In this document: positions 22,604 to 41,432 of the stretch, piece by piece
Position numbering within the stretch: the stretch's first letter is position 1
Layout of the letters: the number at the start of each line of letters is the position of its first letter
Sequence record: SRR2962707_859
DNA: 52,017 nucleotides
Strand: one strand, 5' to 3'
Notes under the pieces: generated by a model
Seen by the model: only the letters and a program-made list of their open reading frames with translations
Told to the model about the DNA's origin: nothing
The model's database searches: none
Position numbers and translations under genes: made by a program

Positions 22604-24580
22604 ATGAGACTACTGGCCTTCCTATCGCTGTTCATCTTTGTGATTTCCCAAATTTTATCTCAAACTAATCTAATCGATAGCTTAGAAAGAAAAATACAAG
22701 ATGCTGAGGTAGATACAACCAAGATTAACCTGTATATAAGATTACATGATGAACTCAGGCTCTCTGACTTCAATAAAGCAGCAAAAATTGCAAGAGTATC
22801 ATACAAATTATCACAGCAAATCAACTGGCCAAAAGGAATTGCCACAACAGGAAGAAATTTTGGAATTGCTTTAAATCTTTTGGGAAAGTACGACTCAGCT
22901 GAATTGGTTTTAAATGAAGCAATAAATAGTTCCAAGGATGTAGGTGACATTTCAAATGTCGGTTATTGCTATATGACGCTCGGAAACATCCAGTATGATC
23001 AAACCAACTACGATGAAGCGTTGAAATTCTACTTTAAATCCTTAGAGACATATGAGCCAATCGAAAACTATGTTGGAATGTCATCCGCAATGATTTGGAT
23101 TGGCATCATTTATCAATATGCAAAATCAGATTATGAAGCGGCAATCGATACATATATGGACGCCCTCAAGTATAGTGATCTTGGGAATTCAACCCTCAAC
23201 AAAAGTTATATCTACAGTAATCTAGCAACGATCTATTACAATGAATACGAGTACGATTCTGCCTTAAGTTATTATCAGAAATCACATGAAATAAAGAAAC
23301 AGTTTAATGATCAGCGAGGAATTGGCAATGACTACAACAACATCGGCAATGTATGGTATGAACTAAAAAAGTATGATAGTGCACTTTTCAATTACGAAAA
23401 AAGCCTAAGCATAAGAAGGGAAATGAATGATCAAACCGGAGTTGCGTCAGCATTGATCAATATGGGTAAGGTATATGCTGATTTGGAATTGACAACCGAA
23501 GCTCAACAAAAGCTCATGGAAGGTTACAATATAGCAAAAGAAGTCGGGTACAAGGAAGCGTGGCAACAAGCTTCATTATTATTAAGTATGCTTTTTGAAA
23601 AACAAAATCAATTCAAAAATGCCCTGACCTATCATAAAGAATACAAAGCAGTAAGCGATTCCATATTCAATTCAGAGAGTGATCGATCAATAACTGAACT
23701 TAAAACCCAGTACGAAACGGAGAAAAAAGAGCAGCAAATCGAATTACAGGAGGCGCAACTAGCAGAACAAGAAGCGACTATTTCCCGAAACCGACTTGCA
23801 TTATTTGCTTCCTTCACAGCACTTGTTTTGCTTATCATTATTGGAGCCCTGTGGAGAAACCGAATTCGTAAAAAGCAGCAGTTGAAGTTGCAGGAAGCTA
23901 AGCTTGAGGCAAGAGAAGCAGAAATCAACGCCACCATTTCATCCCAGGAAAAAGAACGGGCGCGATATGCCCGCGATCTGCATGATGGATTTGGTCAAAT
24001 GATCTCCATTTTGAACATGAACCTTAAAAACCTTAACAGTGACACAAGGCCAGATGAAAGACATAAAGTATTCGAAGCTTCCGCACAGGTAATTGATGAC
24101 ATGTATAGTGAGCTCAAAAACATTTGTTTTGACCTCATGCCGCAAACATTAATCAAGCATGGCCTGGAGAGTGCCCTAAAAGAGTTTTCAGATCGTATTA
24201 ATCAGACAGGAAATATATCTATTGAACTCAACATTTTTGGACTTGATCAACGTCTGGAAGAGGTTCAGGAAATCTCACTATATCGCATTTCACAGGAGTG
24301 GATCAACAATATCATAAAATATTCCAATGCTGATAAAGTCACACTACAAATCACTAAAGATGAAACAGAAATCACGCTACTAATTGAAGACAATGGCAGT
24401 GGATTTGATAAAAACCTACTGATATCCGGTAAAGGAAATGGCTGGAAAAACCTCAATACTCGTTCAAACCTGATACAGGGAACTCTTGAATTGGAAACAG
24501 CGCCCGGAAAAAAAGGAAATGTACTGATTATAAACGCTCCGGGTGCCTTGAAGGTCAAGCAGGAAGAGGTAGTGGCCTAA
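22604..24580 (+). CDS. TPR sensor histidine kinase (HisKA_3/NarX-like core), copy 1
   Basis: Signal-like N-terminus, many TPRs, TM, ER.RYARDLHDGFGQ, QEWINNIIKYS, EDNGSGFD. Confidence 0.92.
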   Translation: MRLLAFLSLFIFVISQILSQTNLIDSLERKIQDAEVDTTKINLYIRLHDELRLSDFNKAAKIARVSYKLSQQINWPKGIATTGRNFGIALNLLGKYDSAELVLNEAINSSKDVGDISNVGYCYMTLGNIQYDQTNYDEALKFYFKSLETYEPIENYVGMSSAMIWIGIIYQYAKSDYEAAIDTYMDALKYSDLGNSTLNKSYIYSNLATIYYNEYEYDSALSYYQKSHEIKKQFNDQRGIGNDYNNIGNVWYELKKYDSALFNYEKSLSIRREMNDQTGVASALINMGKVYADLELTTEAQQKLMEGYNIAKEVGYKEAWQQASLLLSMLFEKQNQFKNALTYHKEYKAVSDSIFNSESDRSITELKTQYETEKKEQQIELQEAQLAEQEATISRNRLALFASFTALVLLIIIGALWRNRIRKKQQLKLQEAKLEAREAEINATISSQEKERARYARDLHDGFGQMISILNMNLKNLNSDTRPDERHKVFEASAQVIDDMYSELKNICFDLMPQTLIKHGLESALKEFSDRINQTGNISIELNIFGLDQRLEEVQEISLYRISQEWINNIIKYSNADKVTLQITKDETEITLLIEDNGSGFDKNLLISGKGNGWKNLNTRSNLIQGTLELETAPGKKGNVLIINAPGALKVKQEEVVA

Positions 24581-24669
24581 ATAAGCACGATAATCCTTAA
24601 ATACGCCTATTTAGACGAAAAGGCCTACAGGTAGTTCCTTTCCAACCATTATTTTGCCAAATTAGATGG

Positions 24670-26460
24670 ATGAAACCAACAGCCTTAGTCACCTTTTTGG
24701 TTTTATCTGTAGGACTTTATGCTCAAAAAATTGATCAGGAACTACTTAAACAAGTAGCTGAGGTTCGAAAGACCGATTGTGATAGTGCGCTATCCATTCT
24801 TCCCCAAAACCAAATAACTTCCTTAACCAAAGATGAGATCAAAGCTCAAGCATACTTAGAGCTCGGATATACACATTATTGCTTAGGCAATTTTGATGAT
24901 GCCCTGAAAAACTACCAACTCTCCCTGGATCTTTTTAAAGCTCTGGATTCAAAAACAAAACCAGCAGAAATACTCAACTTGATTGGCACGCTTCAAAAAA
25001 AACAGGACGATTTTGATCTGGCTGAGCAATATTTCAACGAAGGACTTGAATATGCGATTAGCAAAAACGATTCGCTTGGCATTGGAAATAGCCTTAACAA
25101 TATCGGGGTGATGCTTTTCCAGCAAGAGAGATTTGAAGAATCTCTCAAATACTACTTACAGTCCACTGCTGTGAAATCAGCGATTGGGGACACAATTGGC
25201 TTAAGCTATAATTATGACAATCTCGGGATGAATTATAGCAAACTCGAGATCTATGATAGTGCTCAATTTTATTTTGGGCTAGCAGCTGAATATAAGCTAC
25301 TCATTGGAGATAAACTTGGATATGGTATTGTGAAAAACAATACCGGTGAAATGTTGATGGAGCTCGGTGAATTCAACAACGCTGAAGTATTCTTCAAGGA
25401 AGCATTAGAGATCGCAAGGGAGGTATCTTATCCTGATTTTGAGCGCCACATTCTCGGAATGCTTTCAAAACTAAAAGAGCAGAAGGGAAATTATAAGGAA
25501 GCCCTGAGCTTTTACAAAGATCATATTAAGGTAAAAGACAGTCTATTCAATGAAAGAAAAAGCCAACAAGTAGCTGAGCTTGAAACGAAATATCAGACCG
25601 AGAAAAAAGAAGCAGAGATTCAGACACAAAAAGCAGAGATTCAGCAAAAAAACTTTCTTTTGATTGGGGCTGCCGGAGCTATTTTATTGCTTGGTCTTTT
25701 TTTCATTCAAAACAGGCAGAGGCTTAAACTTAAGGCTGAAAAATTAGTGGAAGAACACAAGCGACTGGCTCGCGAGGCTGAAATACGTGCAGCTATTGCC
25801 TCGCAGGAAAAAGAGCGGTCCAGATATGCCAGAGACCTTCACGATGGGTTTGGGCAGATGATTTCCATACTTAATATGAATTTGCAGAATCTGCAAAAAG
25901 GAGCCAAGCCCAATGAACGTCAAAAGGTGTTTGAAGAATCCTCAAAGGTGATTGACGATATGTATCATGAGCTTAAAAACATTTGCTTTGATTTAATGCC
26001 GCAAACCTTAATTAAAAAGGGGTTGGAAAGTGCGCTTAAAGAGTTCGTTGATCGAGTGAATCACACCGGAAAAATCTTTATAGAGTTAAATGTGTTTGGT
26101 TTAAAAAATCGACTTTCAGAAGTGCAGGAAATTTCACTTTATCGCATTTCGCAAGAGTGGATCAACAACATCCTTAAGTATTCAAATGCTACTAAAGTGA
26201 CCTTGCAAATCACAAAAGATGATGATGAAATCACACTCCTTATCGAAGACGATGGTACCGGGTTTGATAAAAAACTCCTTATCTCCGGAAAAGGAAATGG
26301 CTGGAAAAACCTCAATACCAGAGCCAACCTCATTAAGGGAGAAATCGAGTTAGAAACCCATCCGGGAGCAAAGGGAAATACATTAATCATCAATGCGCCA
26401 GCATACACTGAATCACCAGAAGCCGATGAAGTAGAGCAAAATACCATGGAGGTGGTATAG
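24670..26460 (+). CDS. TPR sensor histidine kinase (HisKA_3/NarX-like core), copy 2
   Basis: Same architecture; kinase core closely similar to copy 1. Confidence 0.92.
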   Translation: MKPTALVTFLVLSVGLYAQKIDQELLKQVAEVRKTDCDSALSILPQNQITSLTKDEIKAQAYLELGYTHYCLGNFDDALKNYQLSLDLFKALDSKTKPAEILNLIGTLQKKQDDFDLAEQYFNEGLEYAISKNDSLGIGNSLNNIGVMLFQQERFEESLKYYLQSTAVKSAIGDTIGLSYNYDNLGMNYSKLEIYDSAQFYFGLAAEYKLLIGDKLGYGIVKNNTGEMLMELGEFNNAEVFFKEALEIAREVSYPDFERHILGMLSKLKEQKGNYKEALSFYKDHIKVKDSLFNERKSQQVAELETKYQTEKKEAEIQTQKAEIQQKNFLLIGAAGAILLLGLFFIQNRQRLKLKAEKLVEEHKRLAREAEIRAAIASQEKERSRYARDLHDGFGQMISILNMNLQNLQKGAKPNERQKVFEESSKVIDDMYHELKNICFDLMPQTLIKKGLESALKEFVDRVNHTGKIFIELNVFGLKNRLSEVQEISLYRISQEWINNILKYSNATKVTLQITKDDDEITLLIEDDGTGFDKKLLISGKGNGWKNLNTRANLIKGEIELETHPGAKGNTLIINAPAYTESPEADEVEQNTMEVV

Positions 26461-26564
26461 CTTCCGTTGTATTCCTTTCCCTTCTTTGACTTCAAATATT
26501 TTGAAGCTTAGAGGGAAAACGAATGAATTTGCTATCTTTCATTGGCAGAGACAAACCTGCCAAA

Positions 26565-27182
26565 ATGAAAATTTTTCTAACCGACGATCATGCAGTTCTC
26601 CTGGGAGGACTGATTAAAATTCTTTCTGCAGAGGATGATCTGGAAATAGTTGGCTCGGCAGGTACGGTTAAAGAAACCCTTGATGAGCTCACACAGAAAA
26701 ATGTCGACCTCTTAATTACCGATTATAACCTACCGGACGATGATGGACTCACGCTGGTCCGAAGAGTAAAACAAAAATATCCTGAAATCAATATCATCGT
26801 TCTCAGCATGCACGATGAAGCTCATTTGATAAAGGAAATTCTGAAAGAAGGCATTAATGGATACATACTAAAAAAAGACTCCCATGAGGAATTGGTCAGT
26901 GCGGTCAGGGCAGTAAAAAATGGAAAAGTTTATCTCAGTTCAGATGTAAACACTATGCTCATGAAAGGTCTGAATGGAACAGAAGAGCAAAAGCTTTTAA
27001 CCGATCGTGAACGGGAAATCTTGAAACTCATCGCCAAAGAATACACCAACAGGCAAATGGCCGAGGAGCTATTTATCAGTGAGCGAACAGTGGAAACACA
27101 CCGAAAAAACATCTTCAGAAAGACAGGAACCAACAACCTTGTAGGCCTGATCAAATTCGCCTACGCAAACAACCTCATTTAA
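26565..27182 (+). CDS. NarL/LuxR-family response regulator
   Basis: Start MKIFLTDDH; receiver Asp in LITDYNLP; LTDREREIL...FISERTVETHRKNI helix-turn-helix. Confidence 0.95.
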   Translation: MKIFLTDDHAVLLGGLIKILSAEDDLEIVGSAGTVKETLDELTQKNVDLLITDYNLPDDDGLTLVRRVKQKYPEINIIVLSMHDEAHLIKEILKEGINGYILKKDSHEELVSAVRAVKNGKVYLSSDVNTMLMKGLNGTEEQKLLTDREREILKLIAKEYTNRQMAEELFISERTVETHRKNIFRKTGTNNLVGLIKFAYANNLI

Positions 27183-27297: not shown

Positions 27298-29211
27298 ATG
27301 AAACATTTATTAAAAACTATTTTAGGTCTACTGCTAATGGTGACCTTTATCCACGCAAAATCACAGGATGCTCTCTGGCAGCTAGATTTTGATGATGAAG
27401 TAGAATGGCAAAACTCGACTGAAAGTGGAATCCTTTTGGTGGGAACCAAAGATTTTACCCTTCATGGCATTGACAGCCGTGATGGTAACATTCTATGGTC
27501 CAGTGAGGCGTTCGAGCAAGCCAAAAAAATGAAAGGTCCTGATGGGAAGAAAGTAGAAGCTAAGTATGCGTTCGAAAACTTCATCCGTGTGCTGAGCGAT
27601 GATGAATATCCTGAAGTATCCGATTACATTGAACTTAAATTTACCGATGGATATCAGTACAAGCAGTACGCTGTTATCAATATCCAAACCGGTGAAGAAG
27701 TAATCAGCCCGAAGATTGCTGAGATGCCAATTACGAAAGTTCCATTTTTCGGTGAAATGGCCACATTCAACTACAATGGAACTGGTTACATTCCTGCGTT
27801 AAGAATGGTAATTATTTCCACCACTTACGTGGATTACGAGCAAAAAGGAAACCCTACTGTCAACATTACAAAAATGGTAGATCTCCTTTCGCAAAAAATC
27901 ATCTGGACAAACGATGATATAGCCGTAAATGGTTTCCCGGCACTACTTGAAGATGGTGACATTGTGCTTCCTGGTACAACAAAAATTGCCAAGATGAATC
28001 CAAAAACAGGAGCTGTGAAATGGGAATACAACACAAGTGAAAAAAATCAGACCTTCGAAAGCTTCGACTTGAGCCTTGATTTGTCTTCCGGTTACTTCTT
28101 TGAAAAGAAGAAAAACAACGGAACACTATCAGCGCTTGATATGAATACTGGAAAGAAATTCTGGGAGCAGGATTTGAAGCTTAAAGAAGTGCCTGTAATG
28201 TCAGCAATGCGCGACGGTGTAGTTGTCATAGATGACAAATGGTTCACCATGTATGACCTAAATAACGGAAGTGTTAAATGGGAAGTGAAGAAAATTGATG
28301 GGTATGTTGTTGATCTTGGAGATAAAGGTATTCTTGCTACTTCCAAAGACAAGCAATTGATCCTTCTGAACAGAGAAAACGGCGAGGAAATATGGAATCA
28401 AAAAATCAAGGGAATTAACATAGATCAGGTTGCTGCTACTGGCATCATGTATTCCGATGACAAAAGTAGACTTGGTTATATCCAATTCGACGGAGAGTTG
28501 ATCTGGGATAAAAAAGGAATGCTCGAAGTACCTTCTCTGAGATACAAGCCTGAATTAACAAAAGAGTTGATGCTAATTGAGGGAGATCTTTATGAGGTTG
28601 ACCTACTAACCGGCGACTACAAAGTGCTACATAAAAACCTTTCCGGAAAATTTGATGGAGATGATGCAGCTCCGGAAAGTGTTCAATTAGTAGCAGGCGG
28701 ATACCTATTCTCTGATGCAAACAACCTCGTGATGCTGGAGACTGATGGTTCAGTTCGTTTCGATAAATATTGGGAAGCACCGGGAATGAGCCTTGCAGCT
28801 AAGATCGCACTAAGAGCCGCTCAAGCTTCTGTAATGGCAATGGGTGCTGCATCTCAAATGAAGTCCTCTCATATTGCTGCCAACTCTTACTACGGAGCAA
28901 ATGACTATTACAGTAAGATGTATGCTCAGCAGGCTGAGGACCTTTTCAATGCAGCTAGCATGGTAGGCTCAGAAGCCAAGAAAAAATTCCAGGCTTCAGT
29001 AACCAAAGGAGACATCCGAATGATCCTGACTCGTGTAGGTGAAGGAGGTCAGGGTAAAAGCTCCGGGCTAGTAAAAGTTGACCGAAGAACAGGTGAAGAA
29101 ATGGGAACACTTCTTCTTGGAGATAAAGATCCTGTTTATGATTTCGATCCTATCTCTGGCCAGGTTTTCTTCAAGTCTGACAAGAAACAAATCATTAGTT
29201 ATAGTTTCTAA
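27298..29211 (+). CDS. Exported PQQ/BamB-like beta-propeller protein
   Basis: Start MKHLLK (signal peptide); repeated D/N-x-x-[TD]G-x-x-x-W docking motifs. Confidence 0.8.
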   Translation: MKHLLKTILGLLLMVTFIHAKSQDALWQLDFDDEVEWQNSTESGILLVGTKDFTLHGIDSRDGNILWSSEAFEQAKKMKGPDGKKVEAKYAFENFIRVLSDDEYPEVSDYIELKFTDGYQYKQYAVINIQTGEEVISPKIAEMPITKVPFFGEMATFNYNGTGYIPALRMVIISTTYVDYEQKGNPTVNITKMVDLLSQKIIWTNDDIAVNGFPALLEDGDIVLPGTTKIAKMNPKTGAVKWEYNTSEKNQTFESFDLSLDLSSGYFFEKKKNNGTLSALDMNTGKKFWEQDLKLKEVPVMSAMRDGVVVIDDKWFTMYDLNNGSVKWEVKKIDGYVVDLGDKGILATSKDKQLILLNRENGEEIWNQKIKGINIDQVAATGIMYSDDKSRLGYIQFDGELIWDKKGMLEVPSLRYKPELTKELMLIEGDLYEVDLLTGDYKVLHKNLSGKFDGDDAAPESVQLVAGGYLFSDANNLVMLETDGSVRFDKYWEAPGMSLAAKIALRAAQASVMAMGAASQMKSSHIAANSYYGANDYYSKMYAQQAEDLFNAASMVGSEAKKKFQASVTKGDIRMILTRVGEGGQGKSSGLVKVDRRTGEEMGTLLLGDKDPVYDFDPISGQVFFKSDKKQIISYSF

Positions 29212-29226
29212 TTTCTCATAAGGTTC

Positions 29227-29262
29227 AGCGATCAGTCGTTTTGCGGCTGGTCGCTCTTATTT
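29227..29262 (+). terminator. Hairpin between the propeller and caspase genes
   Basis: AGCGATCAGTCG-TTTTG-CGGCTGGTCGCT followed by an interrupted T tract. Confidence 0.5.
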
Positions 29263-29280
29263 ATTCAAACCTCCACTGCC

Positions 29281-32200
29281 ATGACAAAACTGCTGACCCT
29301 ATTTTTGATATTTCACCTTAGCTTCTTGTATGCTCAACAAGGTGAGCTAATAATTCGACAAGGGCATACCGCCGGAATCAACATGGTGCAATATTCCCCG
29401 ACTGGTGAGTATGTCTACTCCGCCAGCGACGACAAATCCATCAAAATGTGGGATGTACAAACCGGCATAGATGTCAACACATTTAATGCGCATGAAGCTG
29501 AAGTAAAGTCGATCCAACTATCCAGAGATGGAAAGTTGATGGTGAGTGCCGACAGAGCGGGGACAATCATCCTTTGGAATGCGATTACCGGTGAGATTAA
29601 AACCAAAATCAATGCACACAATGGCTCAGCTAACACGGCCAAGCTATCCAAAGATGCCACCACAATCATCTCAGGAGGAGACGATGAAAAGTTAAAAATA
29701 TGGAGCGTGGCAGGTGACTCAATCAAAACTATAACAGGCTTCTCTGCCCCCATCATGAACCTGGCCATTTCTCCAAGTGGCGATCGGATTGTAACGGGTG
29801 GAGGTAAAAACAACGGTGTGGAAGTCAAGCTTGTGGATCCTGAAAAAGGTACCATTCTGGCTGATGCATTGGATAATGTCAAAGGATCAGGAGCAGCATT
29901 GGCTTACACCAAGGCAATCATGACCGGCTTTGCCGTGATAGGAAATGTCGCCAATGGTAGAATAGGCAAAGACATGACCACCATCTTCGTAATGACCTAC
30001 TCCAACATGGAGTTTACTAATGACGGTAAAAAAGTCCTCTTCTCTCAAAATATTTTTATCCCATTCCTAATGGAAAAAGGAGATGAGGAAGAAAATGGAA
30101 GCGCCAGTGTTTCGCTGGTAGAGCTCAGCGATGACCGGAACAATTTTGGAGAAGTCTCGAAACCCATCCGATGGAAAATCAATAATCCTCGTGGAGTCGC
30201 CGTGCTGAGCCAGGATCAAACGAAAGTCATTGTAAATGAGGAACGTTCCATTAAGGTCTACGACATTGAAAATGCGGACTTTCCAGAGCCGGGAAACAAA
30301 GAAGCAGTCAACTATGTACCACCGGTCGTTAAAGAAATTAAGAACATCACTAAAAACACCAATTGGCTGGCTCTCTCGCCGGACTACAGAACCATCGTCA
30401 CTTCCGACCAAAAGAGGCAACTCAAGCTTTGGGACTATGAAACCGGACGAAAAATCCGTGATATGGAAGGCTTTGTTCAGCCTGCCCTTGCGGTGGATGT
30501 CATGCCGGATGGCAAGCACATTTTGGTAGGTTCGCTGGATCGTGATATGACCATGTGGGACATTACCACCGGTACTCTGGTAAAAACTTTCGATCGGTCT
30601 TCGGACGTCAACCACATTGATGTATCCGCAGATGGCAATTACATGGCCACCACGGCTGTTCAAACCTCCTTTCTCAAAATCTGGAACTTCAACACCGGAC
30701 GACTTTACAAAACCCTGAAAGAAAAGAAGGACAATATTGTCTGGGTAAAATTCAACCCGGAGGATGAAGACAAAATCTGGGCACTTACGGATGCCGATGA
30801 CTTAAATGAATGGTCCATAAGTGACTTTAAAGACAAAAATTATAAGGGAGATTATCGTACGCTGGAAGACAAATTTGAGCGAGGGGAGTACTCCATTTCT
30901 TTCGATGGCTATGATGTCACTATCAAAAAAGGAGCTCAGGAAATTATTAGCGATACCCAACAAGGAGTCATCACAGATGCGGTATTCAGTATTGACTCTC
31001 GATTTGCCATCACGACCAATGAAACCGGAGAGATTGCATTATACGACCTGAAAGAAGGAAAGAAAACGATGAGCATGGCACTCATAGGTGAAAGCGGCTT
31101 TATCGCGTATACGCCGGACTTCCACTACACCTCCTCAAAAAATGCCGCCAGGGCAATTGCATTTAAAGAGGGAAACAAAGTTTTACCATTCGAGCAACTG
31201 GAGCTTAAATACAACCGGCCGGATATTATTGCTAAAACACTCGGTTATGCTCCGCAAAAGCTGATAGCCTCTTATGAAGCTGCTTACAAAAAGCGACTGA
31301 AGCGACTTGGATTTAGTGAGGGTGATCTCTCCACCTCAAATGAACTACCAAAGGTTGACGTTGACATTCTTTCCATTCCATTGGAAACAGACCAGCGAAT
31401 GCTCACTTTTTCAGCCCGGGCAAGCGATAAAAATCAATCTATAAATCGCCTGCAAGTTTATGTAAATGATGTGCCTGCCTTTGGATCAAAAGGACTGCCC
31501 GTCAATCCCTCCTCTTCCCTTAGCAAAGACATCACTGTTGAGCTGGGAAAGGACCTCAATGAAATCAAAGTGACAGCTATCAATAGCAAAGGATTGGAGT
31601 CTCTGCCGGAAACATTCGAAGTTCAGCTGACCACAGACTTTGATAAGCCTGATCTTTACCTGGTTTCCATTGGTGTTTCTCAGTATAAACAATCCCAGCA
31701 CAACCTGGCTTTTGCCGCAAAAGATGCAGCTGACATCATTTCTACCATGAAAGGCTCTTCTGAATATGAAAATGTATTTGAAAAACTCATTGTCAATCAG
31801 GAAGCTACCGATGCAAATATTCAAGACATTCGAAGCTTTGTTGAACGAGCTCAAGTCGATGATGTCGTGATGATCTTCATCGCCGGACATGGTGTATTGG
31901 ATAAAGACTACACCTATTATTTTGCTACGCACAACATGGATTTTAATAACCCGGCCAGTGGTGGGTTATCCTACGAACAGCTTCAGTCACTAATTGATGG
32001 AATCAAATGCAGAAACAAGCTTTTGATGATGGACACGTGTCATGCCGGAGAGCTGGATGAGGATGATATTGAAGAAGCTGAGGAATCCATCAGCTCGGTA
32101 GGTTCGGTTTCATTTCGTTCCACCGGATCGCTCGTAAAGCTCAAGGAAAACAGTTTTGGTCTGGATAACACGTTAGAGTTATCAAAAGCACTTTTTAGTG

Positions 32201-32469
32201 ATATGCGAAAAGGAACAGGGGCTACCGTCATTTCAGCAGCGGGCGGAACTGAGTTTGCTGCCGAAGGAGTCAACTCACAAAACGGGCTTTTCACCAGCTG
32301 CCTTATTCAGGGTTTTAGAACACGTAGAGCGGACATCAACAGGGACAGAGATTATCGTGTCTCAGAAATTCGACAGTATGTTGGTGAGCAGGTAATCCTA
32401 TTGAGCAACGGCAAACAGGTTCCTACCTCTCGTGAAGAAAATATCAAAAACGATTTCAAGATTTATTAA
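29281..32469 (+). CDS. Exported WD40-repeat protein with C-terminal caspase-like (peptidase C14) domain
   Basis: Signal peptide; GH...WD repeats; Ig-like segment; LYLVSIGVSQY, LAFAAKDA, FIAGHG (His870), MMDTCHAG (Cys920), NGLFT, QVP. Confidence 0.92.
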   Translation: MTKLLTLFLIFHLSFLYAQQGELIIRQGHTAGINMVQYSPTGEYVYSASDDKSIKMWDVQTGIDVNTFNAHEAEVKSIQLSRDGKLMVSADRAGTIILWNAITGEIKTKINAHNGSANTAKLSKDATTIISGGDDEKLKIWSVAGDSIKTITGFSAPIMNLAISPSGDRIVTGGGKNNGVEVKLVDPEKGTILADALDNVKGSGAALAYTKAIMTGFAVIGNVANGRIGKDMTTIFVMTYSNMEFTNDGKKVLFSQNIFIPFLMEKGDEEENGSASVSLVELSDDRNNFGEVSKPIRWKINNPRGVAVLSQDQTKVIVNEERSIKVYDIENADFPEPGNKEAVNYVPPVVKEIKNITKNTNWLALSPDYRTIVTSDQKRQLKLWDYETGRKIRDMEGFVQPALAVDVMPDGKHILVGSLDRDMTMWDITTGTLVKTFDRSSDVNHIDVSADGNYMATTAVQTSFLKIWNFNTGRLYKTLKEKKDNIVWVKFNPEDEDKIWALTDADDLNEWSISDFKDKNYKGDYRTLEDKFERGEYSISFDGYDVTIKKGAQEIISDTQQGVITDAVFSIDSRFAITTNETGEIALYDLKEGKKTMSMALIGESGFIAYTPDFHYTSSKNAARAIAFKEGNKVLPFEQLELKYNRPDIIAKTLGYAPQKLIASYEAAYKKRLKRLGFSEGDLSTSNELPKVDVDILSIPLETDQRMLTFSARASDKNQSINRLQVYVNDVPAFGSKGLPVNPSSSLSKDITVELGKDLNEIKVTAINSKGLESLPETFEVQLTTDFDKPDLYLVSIGVSQYKQSQHNLAFAAKDAADIISTMKGSSEYENVFEKLIVNQEATDANIQDIRSFVERAQVDDVVMIFIAGHGVLDKDYTYYFATHNMDFNNPASGGLSYEQLQSLIDGIKCRNKLLMMDTCHAGELDEDDIEEAEESISSVGSVSFRSTGSLVKLKENSFGLDNTLELSKALFSDMRKGTGATVISAAGGTEFAAEGVNSQNGLFTSCLIQGFRTRRADINRDRDYRVSEIRQYVGEQVILLSNGKQVPTSREENIKNDFKIY

Positions 32470-32472
32470 GCG

Positions 32473-33249
32473 ATGAGATATTTAGTGATTGTACTCGTAT
32501 TCCTCACTTTTCAAGGTCAAAGCCAATACACCGTCATTCATACGATAGGTAAAATCTATGATATGCAAGCCGGAAAGTATCTAGCAAAAGGCTCAAAAGT
32601 AGATGAAGGAGCAAAACTCAGGTTTGATTCCAATGGAGCCAGAGCCGCAGTATTAAGTTCTTCGAGAGGAAGGTTTGTCATTCAAAAAAACCAATCTTCA
32701 GATTCTCAAAGTGACGCTGTTTATGCATTAACTACAGTCATCTCTCCTGTTCGTGGTAGACTGAGCACACGTTCCGGCTCCATAAATAACCTAATGGATT
32801 TTCAAAAGCACTTTAATGAAGGAACCATCGCGCTGGTAGGGAAATCCTATCAGGTCAGTGTGTCTCCCAGTGCTTTTCCTATGTCCGAATCGAGATTTTT
32901 TTATGCTCAGTTCCTCTATGGTGATGAAACGATCAACAAAAAGCTTGGAAGTGATGAGGACAATTTGATCATCAATTTGAATGAATTCTTTTCAGTGGAT
33001 GGCGACCCAATAGAAGCCACTTCGATCAGTGATGTAAAGCTTTTTTACTACGATGCTGGTAAAGGCACTTCAAAATTCATCACTGATATGAATATCACAT
33101 ATGTATCAGATGAAATCCTCAAGTCTTTAGTTAATGAGTTTCCCAAAGACCCTAAGGAACCGGTGCTTGAGCTGATCAATTCCATGTTTGGAAAATGCAC
33201 GGAAGAGCAGATAAGTCAGGCGATTTCAGCAGTGAATGACGGAAGGTGA
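32473..33249 (+). CDS. Exported hypothetical protein, candidate caspase partner/substrate
   Basis: Signal peptide; 3 nt after the caspase stop; overlaps the next gene by 4 nt; LSTRSG linker motif. Confidence 0.75.
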   Translation: MRYLVIVLVFLTFQGQSQYTVIHTIGKIYDMQAGKYLAKGSKVDEGAKLRFDSNGARAAVLSSSRGRFVIQKNQSSDSQSDAVYALTTVISPVRGRLSTRSGSINNLMDFQKHFNEGTIALVGKSYQVSVSPSAFPMSESRFFYAQFLYGDETINKKLGSDEDNLIINLNEFFSVDGDPIEATSISDVKLFYYDAGKGTSKFITDMNITYVSDEILKSLVNEFPKDPKEPVLELINSMFGKCTEEQISQAISAVNDGR

Positions 33250-34406
33250 AGAAGTGGATTCTCATATTGCTGATTGCTGCCAATACCTTAGTGATGATGG
33301 CCCTCACCTTTTATTTGATGAAGCTGCCGTGGCTGGCCGGCGATGAAAAGTTTTTGATTTGGAGTACCTCAGCATTAGAATTTGTCAATCGAGAACCTCC
33401 TGATTCTGAAAGCTTTGCACTCATCAACACTTCTTATGATTTGAACTTGATCGACCGCTATGACGAGTTTGGTTTTCCGGTAGGAAACCAGGCCATAACG
33501 GATCGCCAAAAATTGGCTCAATTTCTAAAAGTCATTAATACCAATAATAGAAAGCCCAAATATGTCATTATCGACATTCACTTTGTTGATTCATCTGATT
33601 TTGATGATGAGCTAGCTGCCCAGCTTAACCGAATGGATAATGTCATTTTATCCGCACACATTAATGAGTTCGGTGAATTAGAAAAACCCTTATTCGAAGA
33701 GGTGAATTACGGCATATCTGATTATCTGATCGGCAGTGCTTTTGATGGAATCTATAAATACCAACTCATCTTCAATGACACGTCCAAGCTCCTTCCACTC
33801 AAAGTACATGAAGCAATCAATAATGTTCAAAGCTCCAAAATCGGACCTTTTGTGAAGGTTGGGGACAGGTGGACCATGAATAATTTCATCATGAACTACA
33901 GGGTGCTGCAAAAAGATATTTATGATATGGAAGCAGGGTTCAATCCAGTAAGCCTGGGGGAATTACTGTACTTATCCGAACAGGACATTCAAGACTTTAC
34001 CGTCAATAAAATTGTGATCATTGGTGATTTTTTTGAAAACGATATGCATGAGACAGTAGTGGAAATCACCTCCGGCCCACTGATTCTATTAAATGCACTT
34101 TTGACCATTCAGAATGGCGACACAGTGGTGAATGCCTGGCTTTTGCTACTCCTCGTGACAGCATATGCACTTCTTAGCTACCTGGTTTTTGTAGAAGGGG
34201 ATCTGATAGAAAAGCGGATCAATAACATCGCAGGAAAAAAACTAACCAGATATCTGGCGGGTTTTGCCAGCTATTTTATTCTGCTTACCATGCTATCCAT
34301 CATCACCTATTCGCTATTTAACATTCACATTAACGTGTTTTTTATAGCTATTGCTTTCTATGTCGTTGACAGAATTACAGGAGTCGTATTGTCCCGAAGA
34401 TCTTAA
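33246..34406 (+). CDS. CHASE2-like sensor membrane protein without output domain
   Basis: N-terminal TM; TDRQKLAQFL, PKYVIIDIHF, KIVIIGD...DMHET, SGPLILLNALLTI; three C-terminal TMs, then stop. Confidence 0.8.
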   Translation: MKKWILILLIAANTLVMMALTFYLMKLPWLAGDEKFLIWSTSALEFVNREPPDSESFALINTSYDLNLIDRYDEFGFPVGNQAITDRQKLAQFLKVINTNNRKPKYVIIDIHFVDSSDFDDELAAQLNRMDNVILSAHINEFGELEKPLFEEVNYGISDYLIGSAFDGIYKYQLIFNDTSKLLPLKVHEAINNVQSSKIGPFVKVGDRWTMNNFIMNYRVLQKDIYDMEAGFNPVSLGELLYLSEQDIQDFTVNKIVIIGDFFENDMHETVVEITSGPLILLNALLTIQNGDTVVNAWLLLLLVTAYALLSYLVFVEGDLIEKRINNIAGKKLTRYLAGFASYFILLTMLSIITYSLFNIHINVFFIAIAFYVVDRITGVVLSRRS

Positions 34407-34439
34407 TCATGAGTTTTAGGTGAGACTAATTCATGACTG

Positions 34440-34470
34440 AAGCCCCGGCTACCTTTTGTCGGGGTTTTTT
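34440..34470 (+). terminator. Intrinsic terminator closing the caspase-CHASE2 unit
   Basis: AAGCCCCGGC-TACCTTTT-GTCGGGGTTT plus a T run. Confidence 0.8.
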
Positions 34471-34525
34471 ATTGCCTCCCGGCCTATTTGCCTATTATTG
34501 CATACTAATTCAATCATACCATTTT

Positions 34526-35515
34526 ATGGCAGAAGTACGACACAACTGGACCCTTGAAGAAATAGCTGACATCTACAATCGCCCATTGATGGAATTGGTA
34601 TTTGAGGCGGCAACCATACACCGAAAATATCACGATCCAAAAGAAGTACAGGTGAGTAGCCTGATCTCAATAAAAACCGGCGGATGTCCGGAAGATTGTG
34701 CGTATTGCCCACAGGCAGCACGCTACCACACAGATATCAAAGTGCATAAACTGATGGAAGTGGATGAGGTGCGTGCCCAGGCCGAATCGGCTAAAGCAAA
34801 CGGTGCTTCCAGAATGTGCTTAGGTGCTGCATGGAGAGAGGTTCGGGATAACAGAGATTTTGATAAGGTGCTGGACATGGTGAAAACCGTGAACAGCATG
34901 GACATGGAAGTATGCTGTACCCTTGGAATGGTGTCAGAAGATCAGGCCAAAAAGCTCGCTGATGCCGGACTTTATGCCTATAATCACAACATCGATACCT
35001 CGGAAGCATATTATGATGACATCATCGGTACACGGGAATATGACGATCGTTTGAAGACGATCGATAATGTAAGAAAAGCAAAAATTACGGTTTGTTCCGG
35101 AGGAATCATTGGAATGGGTGAGTCTGCCGAAGACCGCATGGGTATGCTTCTGACTCTTGCTACTATGGAAGTCCACCCGGAATCTGTTCCAATCAATGCA
35201 TTGGTGCCGGTTGAAGGAACACCTCTGGCTGAGCAACCGCGTGTAGCCGCACATGAGTTGATCCGTATGATTGCAACAGCTAGATTGGTGATGCCGGCAT
35301 CTGTCGTGAGGCTATCCGCTGGAAGGGAAGGAATGAGCCTCACCGAGCAGGCACTTTGCTTCATGGCTGGAGCTAATTCTATTTTCGCCGGAGATAAGCT
35401 GCTGACTACACCAAACCCAGACTTCAATGATGACAAGGAGATGTTTGATTTGTTGGGGTTGGTACCAAGAGAGGCTTTCAAAGGCAAAAAGAAAGAGACT
35501 GAGGTAGAAGTATAA
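34526..35515 (+). CDS. bioB: Biotin synthase
   Basis: [14 protein letters not shown] radical SAM motif, YNHNIDT, CSGGIIG, SVPIN, RLSAGR. Start MAEVRHNW. Confidence 0.97.
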
Positions 35516-35543: not shown

Positions 35544-36653
35544 ATGAACAGCTACCAAAAAGCACTCGAAGAACGAAAAAAGCAACATCTTTTGCGTTCT
35601 CTTCCCCTCGTGCCCGAGGGAATTGATTTTTATTCCAACGACTATCTGGGACTCGCAAAGAATCAAAACCTCAAACTGACTATTGAAAGTGAATTCAAAA
35701 GCGCACCGGTAGCAAATGGAGCAACAGGTTCCCGACTCCTAAGTGGTAATTCCGAATATGCAGAGCAGGTAGAACAACAAATTGCCGATTTTCATCATGC
35801 GGAAAGTGCGTTGGTTTATCCCTCTGGGTACACCGCCAATCTAGGTCTAATTTCTTCCCTCGCTACAAAACAAACTACGCTTATTTGTGATGAACTTATT
35901 CATGCCAGCCTAATTGATGGAGTCCGTCTGGGAAAATCAGATAAAGTACGATTCAAGCACAATCAAATGGATGACCTGGAAGAAAAACTTGAGAAAACAA
36001 GTGGTCAAAAGATTGTGATAGTAGAATCTGTCTATTCAATGGATGGAGATATCTGTCCGTTGGAAAAAATTGCTGTTCTGTGTGAGAAAAAGGATGCCAT
36101 GCTCATTGTAGATGAGGCTCATGCCATTGGCATTTATGGCGATGATGGGAGTGGCCTTGTTCAGTCATTAGAATTGGAAGGCGGTTTACTGGCAAGAATC
36201 ATGACGTATGGTAAAGCTCCCGGTATTCATGGAGCAGCAGTGGTTGGACCCAAATGGCTGAAGGAATACCAAACAAACTTTTCACGGTCTTTAATATTTT
36301 CAACGGCTCCCACGCCACACCAATTTGCAAGTATTTCTGGGATGTACTCATACCTTTCAAAGGTTAATGGAGAAAGAAAACAACTTTTCGAGGTGGTGAA
36401 TTATTTCATCTCTAAAAGGGAAAAACATAGTACTAGTTGGCTCCCTTCTGAGACTCACATTCAATCACTCATCATTCCAGGTAATGCCGCCGTAATTGAG
36501 GTCGCTGACAAGCTGAAAGATGCAGGAATCAATGCGCTACCGATCCGTAAACCAAGTGTGCCAGAGGGGAAAGAACGTATTCGCTTCTGCCTACATGCCT
36601 ACAATACTAAAAGGGAGATAGATTTGCTATTTAAGACTTTAACATCCCCCTGA
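35544..36653 (+). CDS. bioF: 8-amino-7-oxononanoate synthase
   Basis: FYSNDYLGL, GSRLLSGN, SGYTAN, HASLIDG, SMDGD, DEAHA, TYGKA. Confidence 0.93.
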   Translation: MNSYQKALEERKKQHLLRSLPLVPEGIDFYSNDYLGLAKNQNLKLTIESEFKSAPVANGATGSRLLSGNSEYAEQVEQQIADFHHAESALVYPSGYTANLGLISSLATKQTTLICDELIHASLIDGVRLGKSDKVRFKHNQMDDLEEKLEKTSGQKIVIVESVYSMDGDICPLEKIAVLCEKKDAMLIVDEAHAIGIYGDDGSGLVQSLELEGGLLARIMTYGKAPGIHGAAVVGPKWLKEYQTNFSRSLIFSTAPTPHQFASISGMYSYLSKVNGERKQLFEVVNYFISKREKHSTSWLPSETHIQSLIIPGNAAVIEVADKLKDAGINALPIRKPSVPEGKERIRFCLHAYNTKREIDLLFKTLTSP

Positions 36654-36719
36654 CCCCCTTCAAAGGGGGAATAATAATAGTCGAGAGGGGAATGTCCCCT
36701 TTAGGGGACTACAGGGGTG
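36644..36719. repeat. Inverted pair of C/G-rich REP-like palindromes at the bioF-bioD junction
   Basis: ATCCCCCTGACCCCCTTCAAAGGGGGAAT ... TCCCCTTTAGGGGACTACAGGGGTG. Confidence 0.75.
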
Positions 36720-36732
36720 TTCCAAGAAAATC

Positions 36733-37338
36733 ATGAAACAAAAAATAATTGTAGCAGGCATAGATACCGACATAGGCAAAACAGTTGCTTCAGCTATCCT
36801 ATGCAAAGCACTTAATGCAGACTATTGGAAACCAGTTCAGGCAGGAGATCTGGAAAACACCGATTCGCACAAAGTGAAACGGTGGAGTCCGGAGACCATT
36901 ATTCATTCGGAAGCCTATCGACTGACTCAGCCTATGTCGCCTCATGCTGCTGCAGCGATAGATCAATTGGAAATTGATGAAGACAAACTGCAAATTCCTG
37001 AAACAGAAAATAACCTTATTATTGAATTAGCAGGCGGACTAATGGTGCCCATGCGTGAAGATTACCTGAATATCGATTGGGTGGCCAGCACCGGACTGCC
37101 GGTCATTTTGGTTTCTAATTATTACCTGGGTAGCATTAACCACACCCTTCTTTCACTGTATGCATTGAAAAGCCGAAACATCCCTTTGCTCGGAATCATT
37201 TTCAATGGTGAAAAAAATCCCTCTACATTTGACGTCATCATGAACAGATCAGGTGCAAAATGCCTATTGGAGATCAATAAAGAAGAGGAGATCAATAAAG
37301 AAGTAGTAGCACAGTATGCAAAACAACTCACCGTCTAA
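36733..37338 (+). CDS. bioD: Dethiobiotin synthase
   Basis: GIDTDIGKT, YWKPVQAG, SPH.AA, ELAGGLMVP, LGSINHT. Confidence 0.96.
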   Translation: MKQKIIVAGIDTDIGKTVASAILCKALNADYWKPVQAGDLENTDSHKVKRWSPETIIHSEAYRLTQPMSPHAAAAIDQLEIDEDKLQIPETENNLIIELAGGLMVPMREDYLNIDWVASTGLPVILVSNYYLGSINHTLLSLYALKSRNIPLLGIIFNGEKNPSTFDVIMNRSGAKCLLEINKEEEINKEVVAQYAKQLTV

Positions 37339-38647
37339 TGTAGATAATTTCCCCCTTTGGAGGGGGACAGGGGAAGGATTCGAAGAAGACATCAATTTCG
37401 ATCAAAACCACATTTGGCACCCTTATACCTCACTTACTAAGCCATTACCTACTTACCCGGTTGTTTCCGCATCCGGTGTTCGGCTCCAACTCGCCGACGG
37501 CAAAGAACTGGTAGATGGCATGTCCAGCTGGTGGACAGCTATCCATGGATATAATGTTCCCGAGTTGAATGAAGCTGCAAATGAACAGCTACAAAAAATG
37601 GCTCATGTCATGTTCGGTGGAATCACGCATGAGCCTGCGATCAAACTCTGCCAAAAGTTGGTAGAAATCACTCCTGAAGGATTGGAGAAAGTCTTCCTGG
37701 CAGATTCCGGATCAGTATCTGTAGAGGTGGCGATGAAAATGGCAATCCAATACCAGCATGCAAAAGGGCAGGCACAGAAAAATAAATTCATGACCATTCG
37801 AAACGGCTACCATGGTGATACAACAGGTGCCATGTCTGTCTGTGATCCGGAGGGGGGAATGCATCATTTATTCTCGGAGTTTCTGCCGAAGCATGTTTTT
37901 GTCAATCAACCCAATAAACGATTCGATGAGTCTTGCGAAGAGGAAGATTATGCTGCGCTCGAACAAGCCTTTCGATTGAATGCGGACAAATGTGCTGCTT
38001 TCATTTTGGAACCTATTGTACAGGGAGCTGGTGGCATGTGGTTTTATTCTCCGAACTATTTAGAGAGGATCCGGGAACTCTGCAGTCAGCATGATATGCT
38101 GCTTATCGCCGATGAAATCGCCACGGGATTCGGACGAACAGGTAAATTATTTGCCTGTGAACATGCGGGTATCTCACCTGATATCATGTGTGTAGGTAAA
38201 GCATTGACGGGAGGATACATGACATTAGCAGCAACACTTACTACGCAACATGTGGCAGAGACTGTTTGCAATGGAGAAGCAGGCGTATTTATGCATGGGC
38301 CTACATTCATGGGTAACCCGCTGGCTTGCGCGATAGCCAATAGAAGTCTTGAATTATTGCTTGAATGCAATTGGCAAGAAAGAATCAGCACCATTGAAAG
38401 GCAACTGAAGCGTGAGCTTCTTCCTATTGGAAATGCTCTGAAAGTAAAAGATGTTCGTGTACTTGGAGCAATCGGTGTGGTGGAGATGAACGAATCCGTA
38501 GATGTATCTGCAGCACAAAAGTTCTTTGTAGAAAATGGTGTTTGGATTCGGCCATTCAGGAATCTCATTTATATCATGCCTCCTTATGTGATTGCAAAAG
38601 AAGATTTGCAGCATCTGACTGCCACCATTACCGATTACGTTGTTTAA
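37316..38647 (+). CDS. bioA: Adenosylmethionine--8-amino-7-oxononanoate aminotransferase
   Basis: IWHPYT, DGMSSWW, DSGSVSVEVAMK, YHGDT, DEIATGFGRTG, GKALTGGY, HGPTFMGNP. Confidence 0.96.
   Translation: MQNNSPSNVDNFPLWRGTGEGFEEDINFDQNHIWHPYTSLTKPLPTYPVVSASGVRLQLADGKELVDGMSSWWTAIHGYNVPELNEAANEQLQKMAHVMFGGITHEPAIKLCQKLVEITPEGLEKVFLADSGSVSVEVAMKMAIQYQHAKGQAQKNKFMTIRNGYHGDTTGAMSVCDPEGGMHHLFSEFLPKHVFVNQPNKRFDESCEEEDYAALEQAFRLNADKCAAFILEPIVQGAGGMWFYSPNYLERIRELCSQHDMLLIADEIATGFGRTGKLFACEHAGISPDIMCVGKALTGGYMTLAATLTTQHVAETVCNGEAGVFMHGPTFMGNPLACAIANRSLELLLECNWQERISTIERQLKRELLPIGNALKVKDVRVLGAIGVVEMNESVDVSAAQKFFVENGVWIRPFRNLIYIMPPYVIAKEDLQHLTATITDYVV
37349..37377 (+). repeat. REP-like palindrome inside the 5' end of bioA
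   Basis: TTCCCCCTTTGGAGGGGGACAGGGG differs at 2 positions from the reverse complement of 36647-36671 (TTCCCCCTTTGAAGGGGGTCAGGGG). Confidence 0.8.
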
Positions 38648-39953: not shown

Positions 39954-41432
39954 GTGCCTTGTAGACTCAATATATCACTTCTGTTCATTTTAGCGGTTCA
40001 TTTTCTTAATGGCCAAAAATATGGAAGTGCCTTTAATGAAAAAATCGTTGATGCGATACTATATGAGGATGCTGAGGAAGTAGGACTCCCTGAAAATGAA
40101 ATTGAAAGAAACCTGATCCTGTCAATCACGTCAAGAAATTCCTCTCCTCAAGTATCTGCCGAGAAATTAATTGCCGCAAAAGAAGCCATTTTAGTTGGTA
40201 AGAGAATTAGCTATTCCCCCGTACTTGATCTGGTCGAAGGATATTTTTACATGTTTGAGGATGTCTCCAAAGCTGAGGGTCTATTCCTAAAAGCAGTCGA
40301 AGGATTTGAACAGCAAGAAAATCAATCGATGAGTCGATTGACTCAATATTTCTTGGTCAGAATAATAGCTATTTCTGATCAATGGTTTGCTGCCTCTGAA
40401 GCATACGATAAATATCAACAGTCGGCTGAAAATGCTCAAATAAAACAAACCCTTTTAAGTAAAAAAATCGACCTACTAGGAAAAAGCCTTTATGGCAGCA
40501 TTATTACTGCTGTCTCCAATTTAGATTCTGCTGCTATTCCTAAAGCAGAATCCTTTTTAAAAGAGCTAATTGAAGAGTCAAAAGATTTCAACGCCGATGG
40601 TGTCAGGTATAATGCAATTGGCAACCTCGCTTACATTTATTTCCTTCAAAAGGATTACAAGAAAATGATTCCACTTGCACTGCAGGATCTGAAATTTTCA
40701 AAGGAGAATGGAAGAATAGAGAGTGCCTGCGGATTGCACATCACATTGAGTTCTGCTTATTCGGAAATTGGTGATTTTGAAAATGCCCGATATCACTTTC
40801 ATGAGGCAGAGCAACTAATCGATCAGGTAGATGGGTTTTTCACGATTCGGGAATTCATCAAGAACGCCAAGCGATTTTATGATTTTAATGATTCCGATAA
40901 ACTTTTTGAATTGTTGGAGTTCGTCCAAAACATTTTAATAAAGAGATTCAACACTACACCTGCAGTGAATTATGAGTATCTAAAGGCAGAAAATAAACTG
41001 CTGGAAGCAGAAAATCAGATCAAGTTTCTACTGGAAAAAAATGAACTCACCTCAAGAAACAACTTGCTACTCGTTCTGCTTCTAATCGCTGTTCTACTAA
41101 TACTCTTTATTTTCTACAGACTACTGCGTAACCAAAGAAAATTCAGAACAAAGCTTGAATTCATTAATCGCAATCTGGAAAATGAAGTGAAAAACAGAAC
41201 CAAAAAGGTATACGAGCAGAACAAGAAAATCCAACAATTCTCTTACCGAAACTCGCACATGACCCGAGCTCCTGTCGCGCGTTTAATAGGGCTAGCAGAT
41301 TTATTGTCCGACGATCCTGAATCGAATAAGGAATTACTAAAAGAGATAAAAGCGTCCACTATTGAAGTCGATAAAATTGTTCGTGAGATCAATGAAATGT
41401 TATCAGATGATTCTCCGAATACCATTTATTAA
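39954..41432 (+). CDS. TPR-like membrane protein ending in a HisKA-like helix pair, no ATPase domain
   Basis: Signal-like start, helical repeats, one TM, coiled coil, SHMTRAPVARLIGL, stop about 45 aa later. Confidence 0.75.
   Translation: MPCRLNISLLFILAVHFLNGQKYGSAFNEKIVDAILYEDAEEVGLPENEIERNLILSITSRNSSPQVSAEKLIAAKEAILVGKRISYSPVLDLVEGYFYMFEDVSKAEGLFLKAVEGFEQQENQSMSRLTQYFLVRIIAISDQWFAASEAYDKYQQSAENAQIKQTLLSKKIDLLGKSLYGSIITAVSNLDSAAIPKAESFLKELIEESKDFNADGVRYNAIGNLAYIYFLQKDYKKMIPLALQDLKFSKENGRIESACGLHITLSSAYSEIGDFENARYHFHEAEQLIDQVDGFFTIREFIKNAKRFYDFNDSDKLFELLEFVQNILIKRFNTTPAVNYEYLKAENKLLEAENQIKFLLEKNELTSRNNLLLVLLLIAVLLILFIFYRLLRNQRKFRTKLEFINRNLENEVKNRTKKVYEQNKKIQQFSYRNSHMTRAPVARLIGLADLLSDDPESNKELLKEIKASTIEVDKIVREINEMLSDDSPNTIY

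Follow-up and report, generated by a model that had tools for sequence, protein, structure and literature searches.

A CHASE2 protein without output domain and its partner protein form the core of a gene block with a predicted exported metacaspase-like protein

The stretch of DNA analysed here (sequence record SRR2962707_859, 52,017 nucleotides; hereafter the window) carries at 27298-34406 four co-oriented genes, all on the + strand, which a preliminary description had read as one linear proteolytic signalling chain of the cell envelope. They encode a 637-aa PQQ_2/BamB-like beta-propeller protein (PROP, 27298..29211), a protein of 1062 aa that combines two WD40 propellers with an immunoglobulin (Ig)-like domain and a metacaspase-like C14 domain (WDCASP, 29281..32469), a 258-aa protein of an unnamed family (PARTNER, 32473..33249) and a 386-aa CHASE2 membrane protein with a GTG start and without a cytoplasmic output domain (CHASE2, 33246..34406). 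Instead of a single chain, the block consists of two separable modules: PARTNER and CHASE2 (pair B) are a fixed, obligate core, and PROP and WDCASP (pair A) are a separate conserved pair, a frequent but replaceable add-on. It is highly probable that PARTNER and CHASE2 work together, and a functional coupling between proteolysis and the CHASE2 pair has, in our estimate, a somewhat better than even chance. As a tentative reading, to which we give a little less than an even chance, we propose a periplasmic envelope module of two gene pairs in which the caspase would cut PARTNER to alter the PARTNER-CHASE2 complex.

The conservation of the block was followed in 101 genomes of the family and in 401 genomes of the phylum (Gnnn, genome label; Lnnn, locus label). 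PARTNER was present in 12 of the 101 family genomes and a CHASE2 orthologue in 11, adjacent to PARTNER in all 11; the twelfth genome with PARTNER (G021) held only a partial PARTNER-like open reading frame (ORF). Seven of the 12 family neighbourhoods showed PROP-WDCASP-PARTNER-CHASE2 in this order, including one with a stop codon in PARTNER and one with the caspase gene split by two transposase genes. In G036 the PARTNER-CHASE2 pair is accompanied by a convergent WD40-caspase gene, and in G010, G050 and G044 it lies amid unrelated genes. As for damaged copies, PARTNER contained one in-frame TAA at L018/L071 (G009), the WD40-caspase gene at L019 (G076, 6804-9259) was broken by IS110-family and DDE transposase genes with PROP, PARTNER and CHASE2 intact, and the CHASE2 gene was in pieces at L061 and L069.

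A scan of one genome per species yielded 40 loci, all of them in Cytophagales, three of which lay on contigs too short for use. All four genes were found in the same order at 36 of the 37 usable loci (three with one or more genes in pieces), and pair B only at one. The flanks varied among lineages and comprised biotin genes, FtsK/LolA, PntB, an AraC regulator or LacI regulators. Thus, the genes do co-occur elsewhere in changing surroundings. Because peptide patterns of close PARTNER relatives were used to find the loci, the 36 loci represent mostly one inherited arrangement.

Beyond the family, a profile search found PARTNER in three of the 401 phylum genomes, and the pair was adjacent in two genomes of other families, G118 and G442. 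In G118 (L078, G118:C96, 11919-19485) three tandem genes for exported proteins of the type TPR-Ig(Glucodextran_B-like)-C14 are located directly upstream of CHASE2-PARTNER on the same strand, with a fourth C14 gene at a distance of a few kb. These TPR caspases are not orthologous to the WD40 form, and the gene order differs. A genome search with PF00656 listed none of the three genes, which illustrates that whole-genome family scans can miss C14 domains. The expectation that caspase genes recur beside CHASE2 genes is borne out by this independent arrangement and by gene fusions in print (see below). In G442, which belongs to another class, the PARTNER-CHASE2 pair occurs without a caspase.

The two pairs were also found apart, and this, together with most of the other points in this and the next paragraph, weighs against the proposed cleavage module. 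In G010, PROP and WDCASP lie on another contig, unlinked from PARTNER-CHASE2, and G043 contains a PQQ-propeller and WD40-caspase pair without PARTNER or CHASE2. Pair B is present in two genomes, G050 (completeness 100%) and G044 (90%), in which no full-length match to the caspase end of WDCASP was obtained; for pair B at L074 and in G442 and G010, no caspase occurred within the stretch examined. As PARTNER and CHASE2 exist without the WD40-caspase in G050, G044 and G442, PARTNER must be more than a substrate of that protease. The motif around Arg100 of PARTNER is kept in G050, G044, L074 and G010 and altered in G442; since it persists where no caspase adjoins, it may have a function in binding instead of cleavage. 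A kinase and a regulator precede the block at only 17 of the 37 loci, and no conserved regulator or output domain travels with it across these loci. Other C14 genes were present in all five genomes checked, G050 and G044 included, and PARTNER cleavage would therefore still be feasible in genomes without the WD40-caspase.

A comparison with the nearest genome (G001, L036) separated the two pairs within the window itself. Nucleotide identity was 91-97% over the response regulator gene upstream of the block, PROP and WDCASP, and 98% over the downstream bioB, and it fell to 69-70% exactly over PARTNER and CHASE2 (32470-34400). Synonymous divergence (dS) was 0.19-0.30 for the regulator, PROP and WDCASP, 0.62 for bioF and 1.19 for HK2, one of the kinase genes upstream, and was saturated for PARTNER and CHASE2. 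This pattern points to an exchange of PARTNER and CHASE2 as one cassette by recombination, apart from the caspase. In three other genome pairs with caspases at least 97% identical, PARTNER (93-97%) and CHASE2 (90-98%) stayed similar, so the event is better seen as a single exchange of old alleles than as a general rule. Since the boundary of the swap lies exactly between WDCASP and PARTNER, neither module has to be a specific match for the other. A parallel divergence was seen in HK2, where the exported TPR half (24665-25664 of the window) showed 72% nucleotide identity to G001; the TPR half of HK2 is 73% and the cytoplasmic half 94% identical. This divergence of the sensor half is a single observation from one strain pair.

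The spacing of the genes is in line with a transcriptional unit of the last three. WDCASP and PARTNER are separated by a 3-nt gap, PARTNER and CHASE2 overlap by 4 nt, and an intrinsic terminator with hairpin and U run closes the operon 3' of CHASE2 (34439..34470, + strand). Folding of 34407-34480 gave a G+C-rich hairpin of 11 bp with a U run behind it (-27 kcal/mol, z -3.97; none of 200 shuffles folded as well); a simple terminator scanner had missed this terminator. The 3-nt gap and the shared terminator therefore imply co-transcription of WDCASP, PARTNER and CHASE2. Between PROP and WDCASP, a terminator-like hairpin of 13 pairs (7 G-C) with a T-rich tail is found at 29227..29255 (+ strand). 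By separating the two genes it may partly insulate PROP from the transcription of WDCASP-PARTNER-CHASE2; such sites are not enriched in the whole region (16 found vs 11.8 +/- 3.5 expected). The PROP ORF opens at GTG 27226, and its orthologues align from ATG 27298, from which the 637 aa are counted. PROP, WDCASP and PARTNER all begin with a charged segment that leads into a hydrophobic core, after which a small residue precedes Gln, and all three proteins look exported, as their leaders fit the Q-rule for Bacteroidetes export leaders given in the accessible part of its description (PMC5837995). Altogether, orientation, spacing, terminator and apparent signal peptides agree with the preliminary description, and its four domain calls (propeller, WD40-caspase, partner, CHASE2) were upheld.

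The separability in G010, G043, G050, G044 and G442, the recombination boundary between the pairs and the largely ancestral nature of the arrangement at 36 of 37 loci, which were collected with close-relative patterns, would also suit two independent envelope functions standing side by side in one lineage, namely a PARTNER-CHASE2 sensor or scaffold and an unrelated periplasmic protease system. We consider this quite unlikely. The implied co-transcription argues against it, and so does the fact that the junction between the pairs is kept while both flanks change. In addition, a different, TPR-type exported caspase adjoins the pair in another family, and C14-CHASE2 fusions as well as a Psychroflexus torquis cluster are in print.

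The product of 33246..34406 is a CHASE2 protein by an above-threshold match to PF05226 (E 4.7e-10, 39.9 bits vs a cut-off of 26.3, residues 83-304). Its model (predicted local distance difference test, pLDDT, 86.9; predicted template modelling score, pTM, 0.84) and the hydropathy profile agree on one transmembrane helix (TM1, 3-26) before a periplasmic alpha/beta domain (about 33-290) and three after it (TM2-4, 297-317, 332-358 and 364-385), the topology that had been anticipated. The only cytoplasmic portion between helices is a short TM2-TM3 loop, and the chain terminates directly behind TM4, at residue 386, with no kinase, cyclase or GGDEF output domain following. The best 120 homologues listed are of 245-409 aa, while PF05226 matches were found in 172 of the 401 phylum genomes and the 150 matches listed lie in ORFs of 670-845 aa. 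The idea that a cleavage product is read by the CHASE2 protein is weakened by this architecture, as it offers no visible route into the cell; any inward signal must therefore pass via another membrane protein. A Foldseek search of the model returned nothing. A caspase-like fold of CHASE2 was considered and received no support, the best VIA row reaching Z 6.2 and one separase row Z 5.8 with no row standing out; nor did the Mur-ligase C-terminal domains (Z 4.9-5.9) among the VIA rows for residues 52-294.

PARTNER belongs to a family for which a profile search returned 815 clusters at a threshold of E<=1e-3, 578 of which also passed E<=1e-10; nearly all of the 150 clusters listed are of about 250-290 aa. 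The protein itself had no match in Pfam or NCBIfam, and 23 family members gave only chance hits against Pfam at E<=10, a setting at which HMMER filters discard most matches with E above about 0.1. The model of PARTNER (pLDDT 81.8) shows a beta domain (18-71), a low-confidence linker (75-101), an Ig-like sandwich (107-211) and three helices (212-256). The linker has a pLDDT below 50, yet it is among the best-conserved stretches of the protein. Only G26, R100 and K156 were invariant among 46 diverse members, R100 being the sole invariant Arg; Q18 was invariant in 23 homologues. Among longer homologues, no Pfam domain was found in three of 345-377 aa, which are extended at the N-terminus and whose extensions look low-complexity, or in two others of 298 and 309 aa. 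No PDB structure matched the PARTNER model at E<=1e-3 in Foldseek. An assignment to the 5ix9 'cell surface anchoring domain' fold was rejected, since even this best VIA row (Z 7.1 over 57 residues) falls into the noise band.

The closest parallel in build and placement is MtxA of Magnetospirillum gryphiswaldense (MGR_0208; PDB 4Z29). According to the accessible part of its description, MtxA is an exported protein with an N-terminal beta region, a flexible linker that is the trypsin-sensitive site, and an Ig-like and helical body, and the next gene after mtxA encodes a CHASE2 adenylate cyclase (PMC4439547). PARTNER shares with it a similar size, export and the position of the gene directly upstream of a CHASE2 gene, and its model suggests a similar succession of N-terminal beta region, flexible linker and Ig-like plus helical body. 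When the PARTNER model was compared with 4z29_B by VIA, both C-terminal subdomains were aligned (Z 5.2, root mean square deviation 4.3, 121 residues, rank 19), a result within the noise band. The nearest Pfam-bearing Atlas cluster was DUF7354/MtxA_IG-like (score 0.79), which is a lead only. At the sequence level, PF22433 (MtxA_IG-like) was unmatched by all 23 PARTNER members at E<=10 and was above its cut-off in none of the 401 phylum genomes; a profile of the diverse PARTNER alignment gave only chance hits against PDB sequences, 4Z29 not being among them. The two systems also differ: the neighbour of MtxA carries a cyclase output whereas the CHASE2 protein here has none, no caspase is reported alongside MtxA in the accessible text, and deletion of mtxA gave no phenotype. 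PARTNER thus resembles MtxA in build and placement, and we do not claim membership of the MtxA family for it.

Complex prediction, which had been suggested for the partner with both the caspase and CHASE2, was run for CHASE2 (28-296) with PARTNER (18-258) and gave weak support. The score was 0.50 (runs 0.55, 0.42 and 0.50) compared with 0.00 for the best of three controls, the runs shared at least 73% of contacts, and the partner pLDDT was at least 74. Of 78 solved complexes 51 attained the mark for this score, as did 2 of 108 mismatched pairs; with scores of 0.60 or lower, however, only 5 of these 78 did so, together with all four mismatches that passed (of 180). A score of 0.50 thus falls in the weak band, which tells against the proposed module. 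Because the fixed adjacency of the genes gives a high prior, the score counts as modest support, and PARTNER most likely binds CHASE2 in the periplasm as a co-receptor or protein ligand.

The protease domain of WDCASP was recognised by Peptidase_C14 (PF00656) at residues 797-1056 (E 4.5e-13, 49.9 bits vs a cut-off of 21.4). The catalytic motifs noted in the preliminary description are there, with AGHG starting at 868 (His870) and DTCH at 918 (Cys920), and both residues of the dyad are nearly invariant in an alignment of 18 orthologues and paralogues. As a single sequence the caspase domain had no match among PDB sequences; the profile of the 18 sequences did match, finding Arabidopsis metacaspase-4 (6w8s, E 3e-8), yeast Yca1 (4f6o, E 2.8e-4), GSU0716 (3bij) and, weakly, MALT1. 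Type I/II metacaspases and bacterial orthocaspases (AtMC4, Yca1, GSU0716) are therefore the best sequence relatives, with the dyad and both acidic residues aligned. Unlike them, WDCASP appears to be exported and has its C14 domain at the C-terminus, behind two WD40 propellers and an Ig-like domain.

The acidic residues of WDCASP, Asp815 and Asp918, lie in KDA and DxC motifs that align on the ND and DSC motifs of AtMC4 and Yca1, Asp815 with the Asp of ND and Asp918 with the Asp of DSC. Residues of this type we take to form the S1 pocket for basic residues in metacaspases. WDCASP is accordingly predicted from its alignment to cut after Arg or Lys, the specificity that the accessible part of a report on orthocaspases gives for these enzymes (PMC6426788). 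In the linker between the large and small subunit regions, Arg or Lys is conserved within an FR[SG] motif, which looks like a self-processing site. Its resemblance to the S-x-R-[SG] sequence around Arg100 of PARTNER is suggestive only, and it is plausible that an Arg/Lys-type protease could cleave PARTNER at this invariant Arg of the exposed linker.

PROP matched the PQQ_2 family PF13360 (E 1.3e-19, 71.2 bits vs a cut-off of 27.6) and remained below the cut-off of the BamB equivalog TIGR03300 (57.2 bits vs 285.2). It is the fixed companion of WDCASP, also where this pair is unlinked from CHASE2 (L025 in G010, L030 in G043); other WD40-caspase paralogues pair with TPR proteins instead of PROP. 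At L029 (G003:C111, 2973-17019) three WD40-caspase paralogues stand in tandem, with a 403-aa TPR protein in front of each of two and a 495-aa WD40 protein in front of the third, in a genome with a strongly expanded caspase family (12 matches). At L030 (G043:C28, 8961-10935) the propeller and WD40-caspase are followed by a 254-aa protein that is not a PARTNER (hhalign probability 0.8%) and by a papain-like C1 peptidase. Small ORFs after other WD40-caspases (L030, L034, L031) were likewise rejected as PARTNER relatives (hhalign probability 0.8-2.2%).

Gene structure, domains, catalytic residues, the conservation of both pairs and of the junction between them, and the joint inheritance of pair B are established by these data, from which we infer the binding of PARTNER to CHASE2, its cleavage, the site, the cue and the output as follows. 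The WD40 and PQQ-like propellers would bind a protein cue in the envelope or from outside, upon which WDCASP would cut the exposed conserved linker of PARTNER at or near Arg100. The cut would part the N-terminal domain of PARTNER from its Ig-like and helical body, and the PARTNER-CHASE2 complex would change its state. An inward signal would run via another membrane protein, the TPR histidine kinases and LuxR regulator encoded next to the block being candidates in the Ekhidna clade. That the caspase acts on PARTNER at Arg100 specifically is doubtful. The linear cascade of the preliminary description is one of several possible wirings and leaves the missing output unexplained.

Control could also run in the opposite direction: PARTNER-CHASE2 would then dock the caspase at the membrane or regulate it, by retention, inhibition or release, and other envelope proteins, perhaps PROP, would be the substrates. 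In a comparable logic, the inner-membrane receptor LapD controls the periplasmic cysteine protease LapG. A CHASE2 protein without output fits an action within the periplasm better than inward signalling, the constant companion of the caspase is PROP and not PARTNER, and the Arg100 motif is kept where no caspase adjoins. Such a regulator would, however, need a role without that protease in the genomes that have pair B and lack a WD40-caspase match, and the cassette swap shows no need for caspase and pair B to be matched. On balance we regard reversed control as unlikely. A far-reaching variant of the cleavage module is very unlikely in our view: PARTNER would be a pro-ligand cut at Arg100, and no CHASE2 allele but the cognate one would recognise the resulting piece. 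Pairs of PARTNER and CHASE2 would represent pherotype-like specificity groups that strains swap by recombination, and the signal would pass sideways within the membrane to the TPR kinases, in one of which the exported sensor half diverges between the same two strains.

Caspase-like proteins also occur in cell-death and anti-phage systems, and a weak match of 72.4 bits to the NCBIfam model of EACC1-associated caspases, a match to the generic PADLOC caspase model and the expansion of caspase paralogues in some relatives would be compatible with a system of the EACC1/EACC2 type. The NCBIfam match is below its cut-off (NF047832, 140), PADLOC-DB 2.0.0 gave only generic caspase and HEAT-ARM_XIII models on WDCASP and no match for the other three proteins, and Pfam found no NTPase, effector or adaptor domain. 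Moreover, the protease and both of its soluble neighbours appear to be exported. The reading as a defence system was rejected on the NCBIfam and PADLOC scores together with the export of all soluble parts, and a defence role of this type is most improbable.

Individual elements of the locus have precedents, as CHASE2 genes with exported partner genes and links between C14 and CHASE2 are already known. In LysM/FecR-CHASE2 histidine kinase operons (Burkholderia 'BiofilmReg', Pseudomonas aeruginosa) an exported accessory gene is likewise located immediately upstream of the CHASE2 gene, and a two-component regulator belongs to the operon, as far as the available text goes (PMC5192318). There, however, the CHASE2 protein is a kinase and the operon contains no protease, and neither FecR (PF04773) nor LysM was matched among the 23 PARTNER members at E<=10. 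Fusions of metacaspase and CHASE2, including one in Trichodesmium, appear in the accessible parts of two reports (PMC3501461, PMC2853523), and EACC2-caspase proteins with a C-terminal CHASE2 in that of a third (PMC8195603). In these fusions, which join C14 and CHASE2 functionally, the caspase is cytoplasmic and part of one polypeptide, whereas here it would be a polypeptide of its own, exported to the side where the CHASE2 domain lies.

The most similar gene content in print is genomic island 15 of Psychroflexus torquis, for which exported WD40-metacaspases and a CHASE2 family protein are described, with cell death or algal interaction as a guess, in the accessible part of the report (PMC3914696). 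That island, of 35 kb and with four metacaspases, is presented without the partner family, a mechanism or a conservation analysis, and its likeness is by description only. The statement that no example with this layout had been characterised therefore stands in so far as no member has been studied at the bench, but the layout itself had been noticed in print. The only CHASE2 receptors with a studied signal are the Sinorhizobium meliloti cyclases CyaD1/CyaD2/CyaK, which with the outer-membrane protein NsrA respond through the envelope to a protein signal, ribosomal uL2, according to the available text of two reports (PMC7529298, PMC13001267). They are related to the locus here by the CHASE2 domain alone and differ in their cyclase output, their outer-membrane barrel partner and the absence of a caspase or PARTNER-like gene from that text. 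A literature search for papers treating CHASE2 together with the CHAT domain found none.

Upstream of the block, also on the + strand, lie two sensor kinase genes and a regulator gene. HK1 (22604..24580) encodes a sensor histidine kinase with an exported TPR domain, a single membrane helix near residue 395 by hydropathy, and HisKA_3 and HATPase_c domains (Pfam TPR_12 7e-28, HisKA_3 3.6e-10, HATPase_c 3.6e-8); it is an accessory neighbour outside the conserved core. HK2 (24670..26460) is a second TPR-HisKA_3 kinase by Pfam, and 26523..27182 encodes a LuxR/NarL-type response regulator (Response_reg 2e-23, GerE 2.8e-19). Downstream, the long ORF of bioB (34433-35515) starts upstream of the terminator of the CHASE2 operon and crosses it; since the profile matches only from residue 38 onwards, translation probably starts at the ATG near 34527. 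The biotin genes bioF, bioD and bioA follow (35544-38647). A 492-aa ORF at 39954-41432 also resembles the membrane proteins with exported TPR domains; it comprises an export leader, an extended helical or TPR-like stretch, a single membrane helix and a short C-terminal part. The host itself, judged by the names on homologues, is near to marine, Ekhidna-like Cytophagales.

The work on this locus also defines the so far unnamed PARTNER family, with 815 or more sequence clusters. Natural signals of CHASE2 proteins are hardly known, and the locus gives a concrete test of extracytoplasmic proteolysis as a CHASE2 switch; at the same time, its output-less form of CHASE2 forces the question of how such proteins act. 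As the operon joins a predicted exported caspase of the Arg/Lys type with CHASE2 and a partner with an Arg-containing linker, it also tests a non-death role for bacterial caspases. Should the pro-ligand reading be true, it would mean strain-specific communication or recognition based on protein cleavage in the Bacteroidota envelope.

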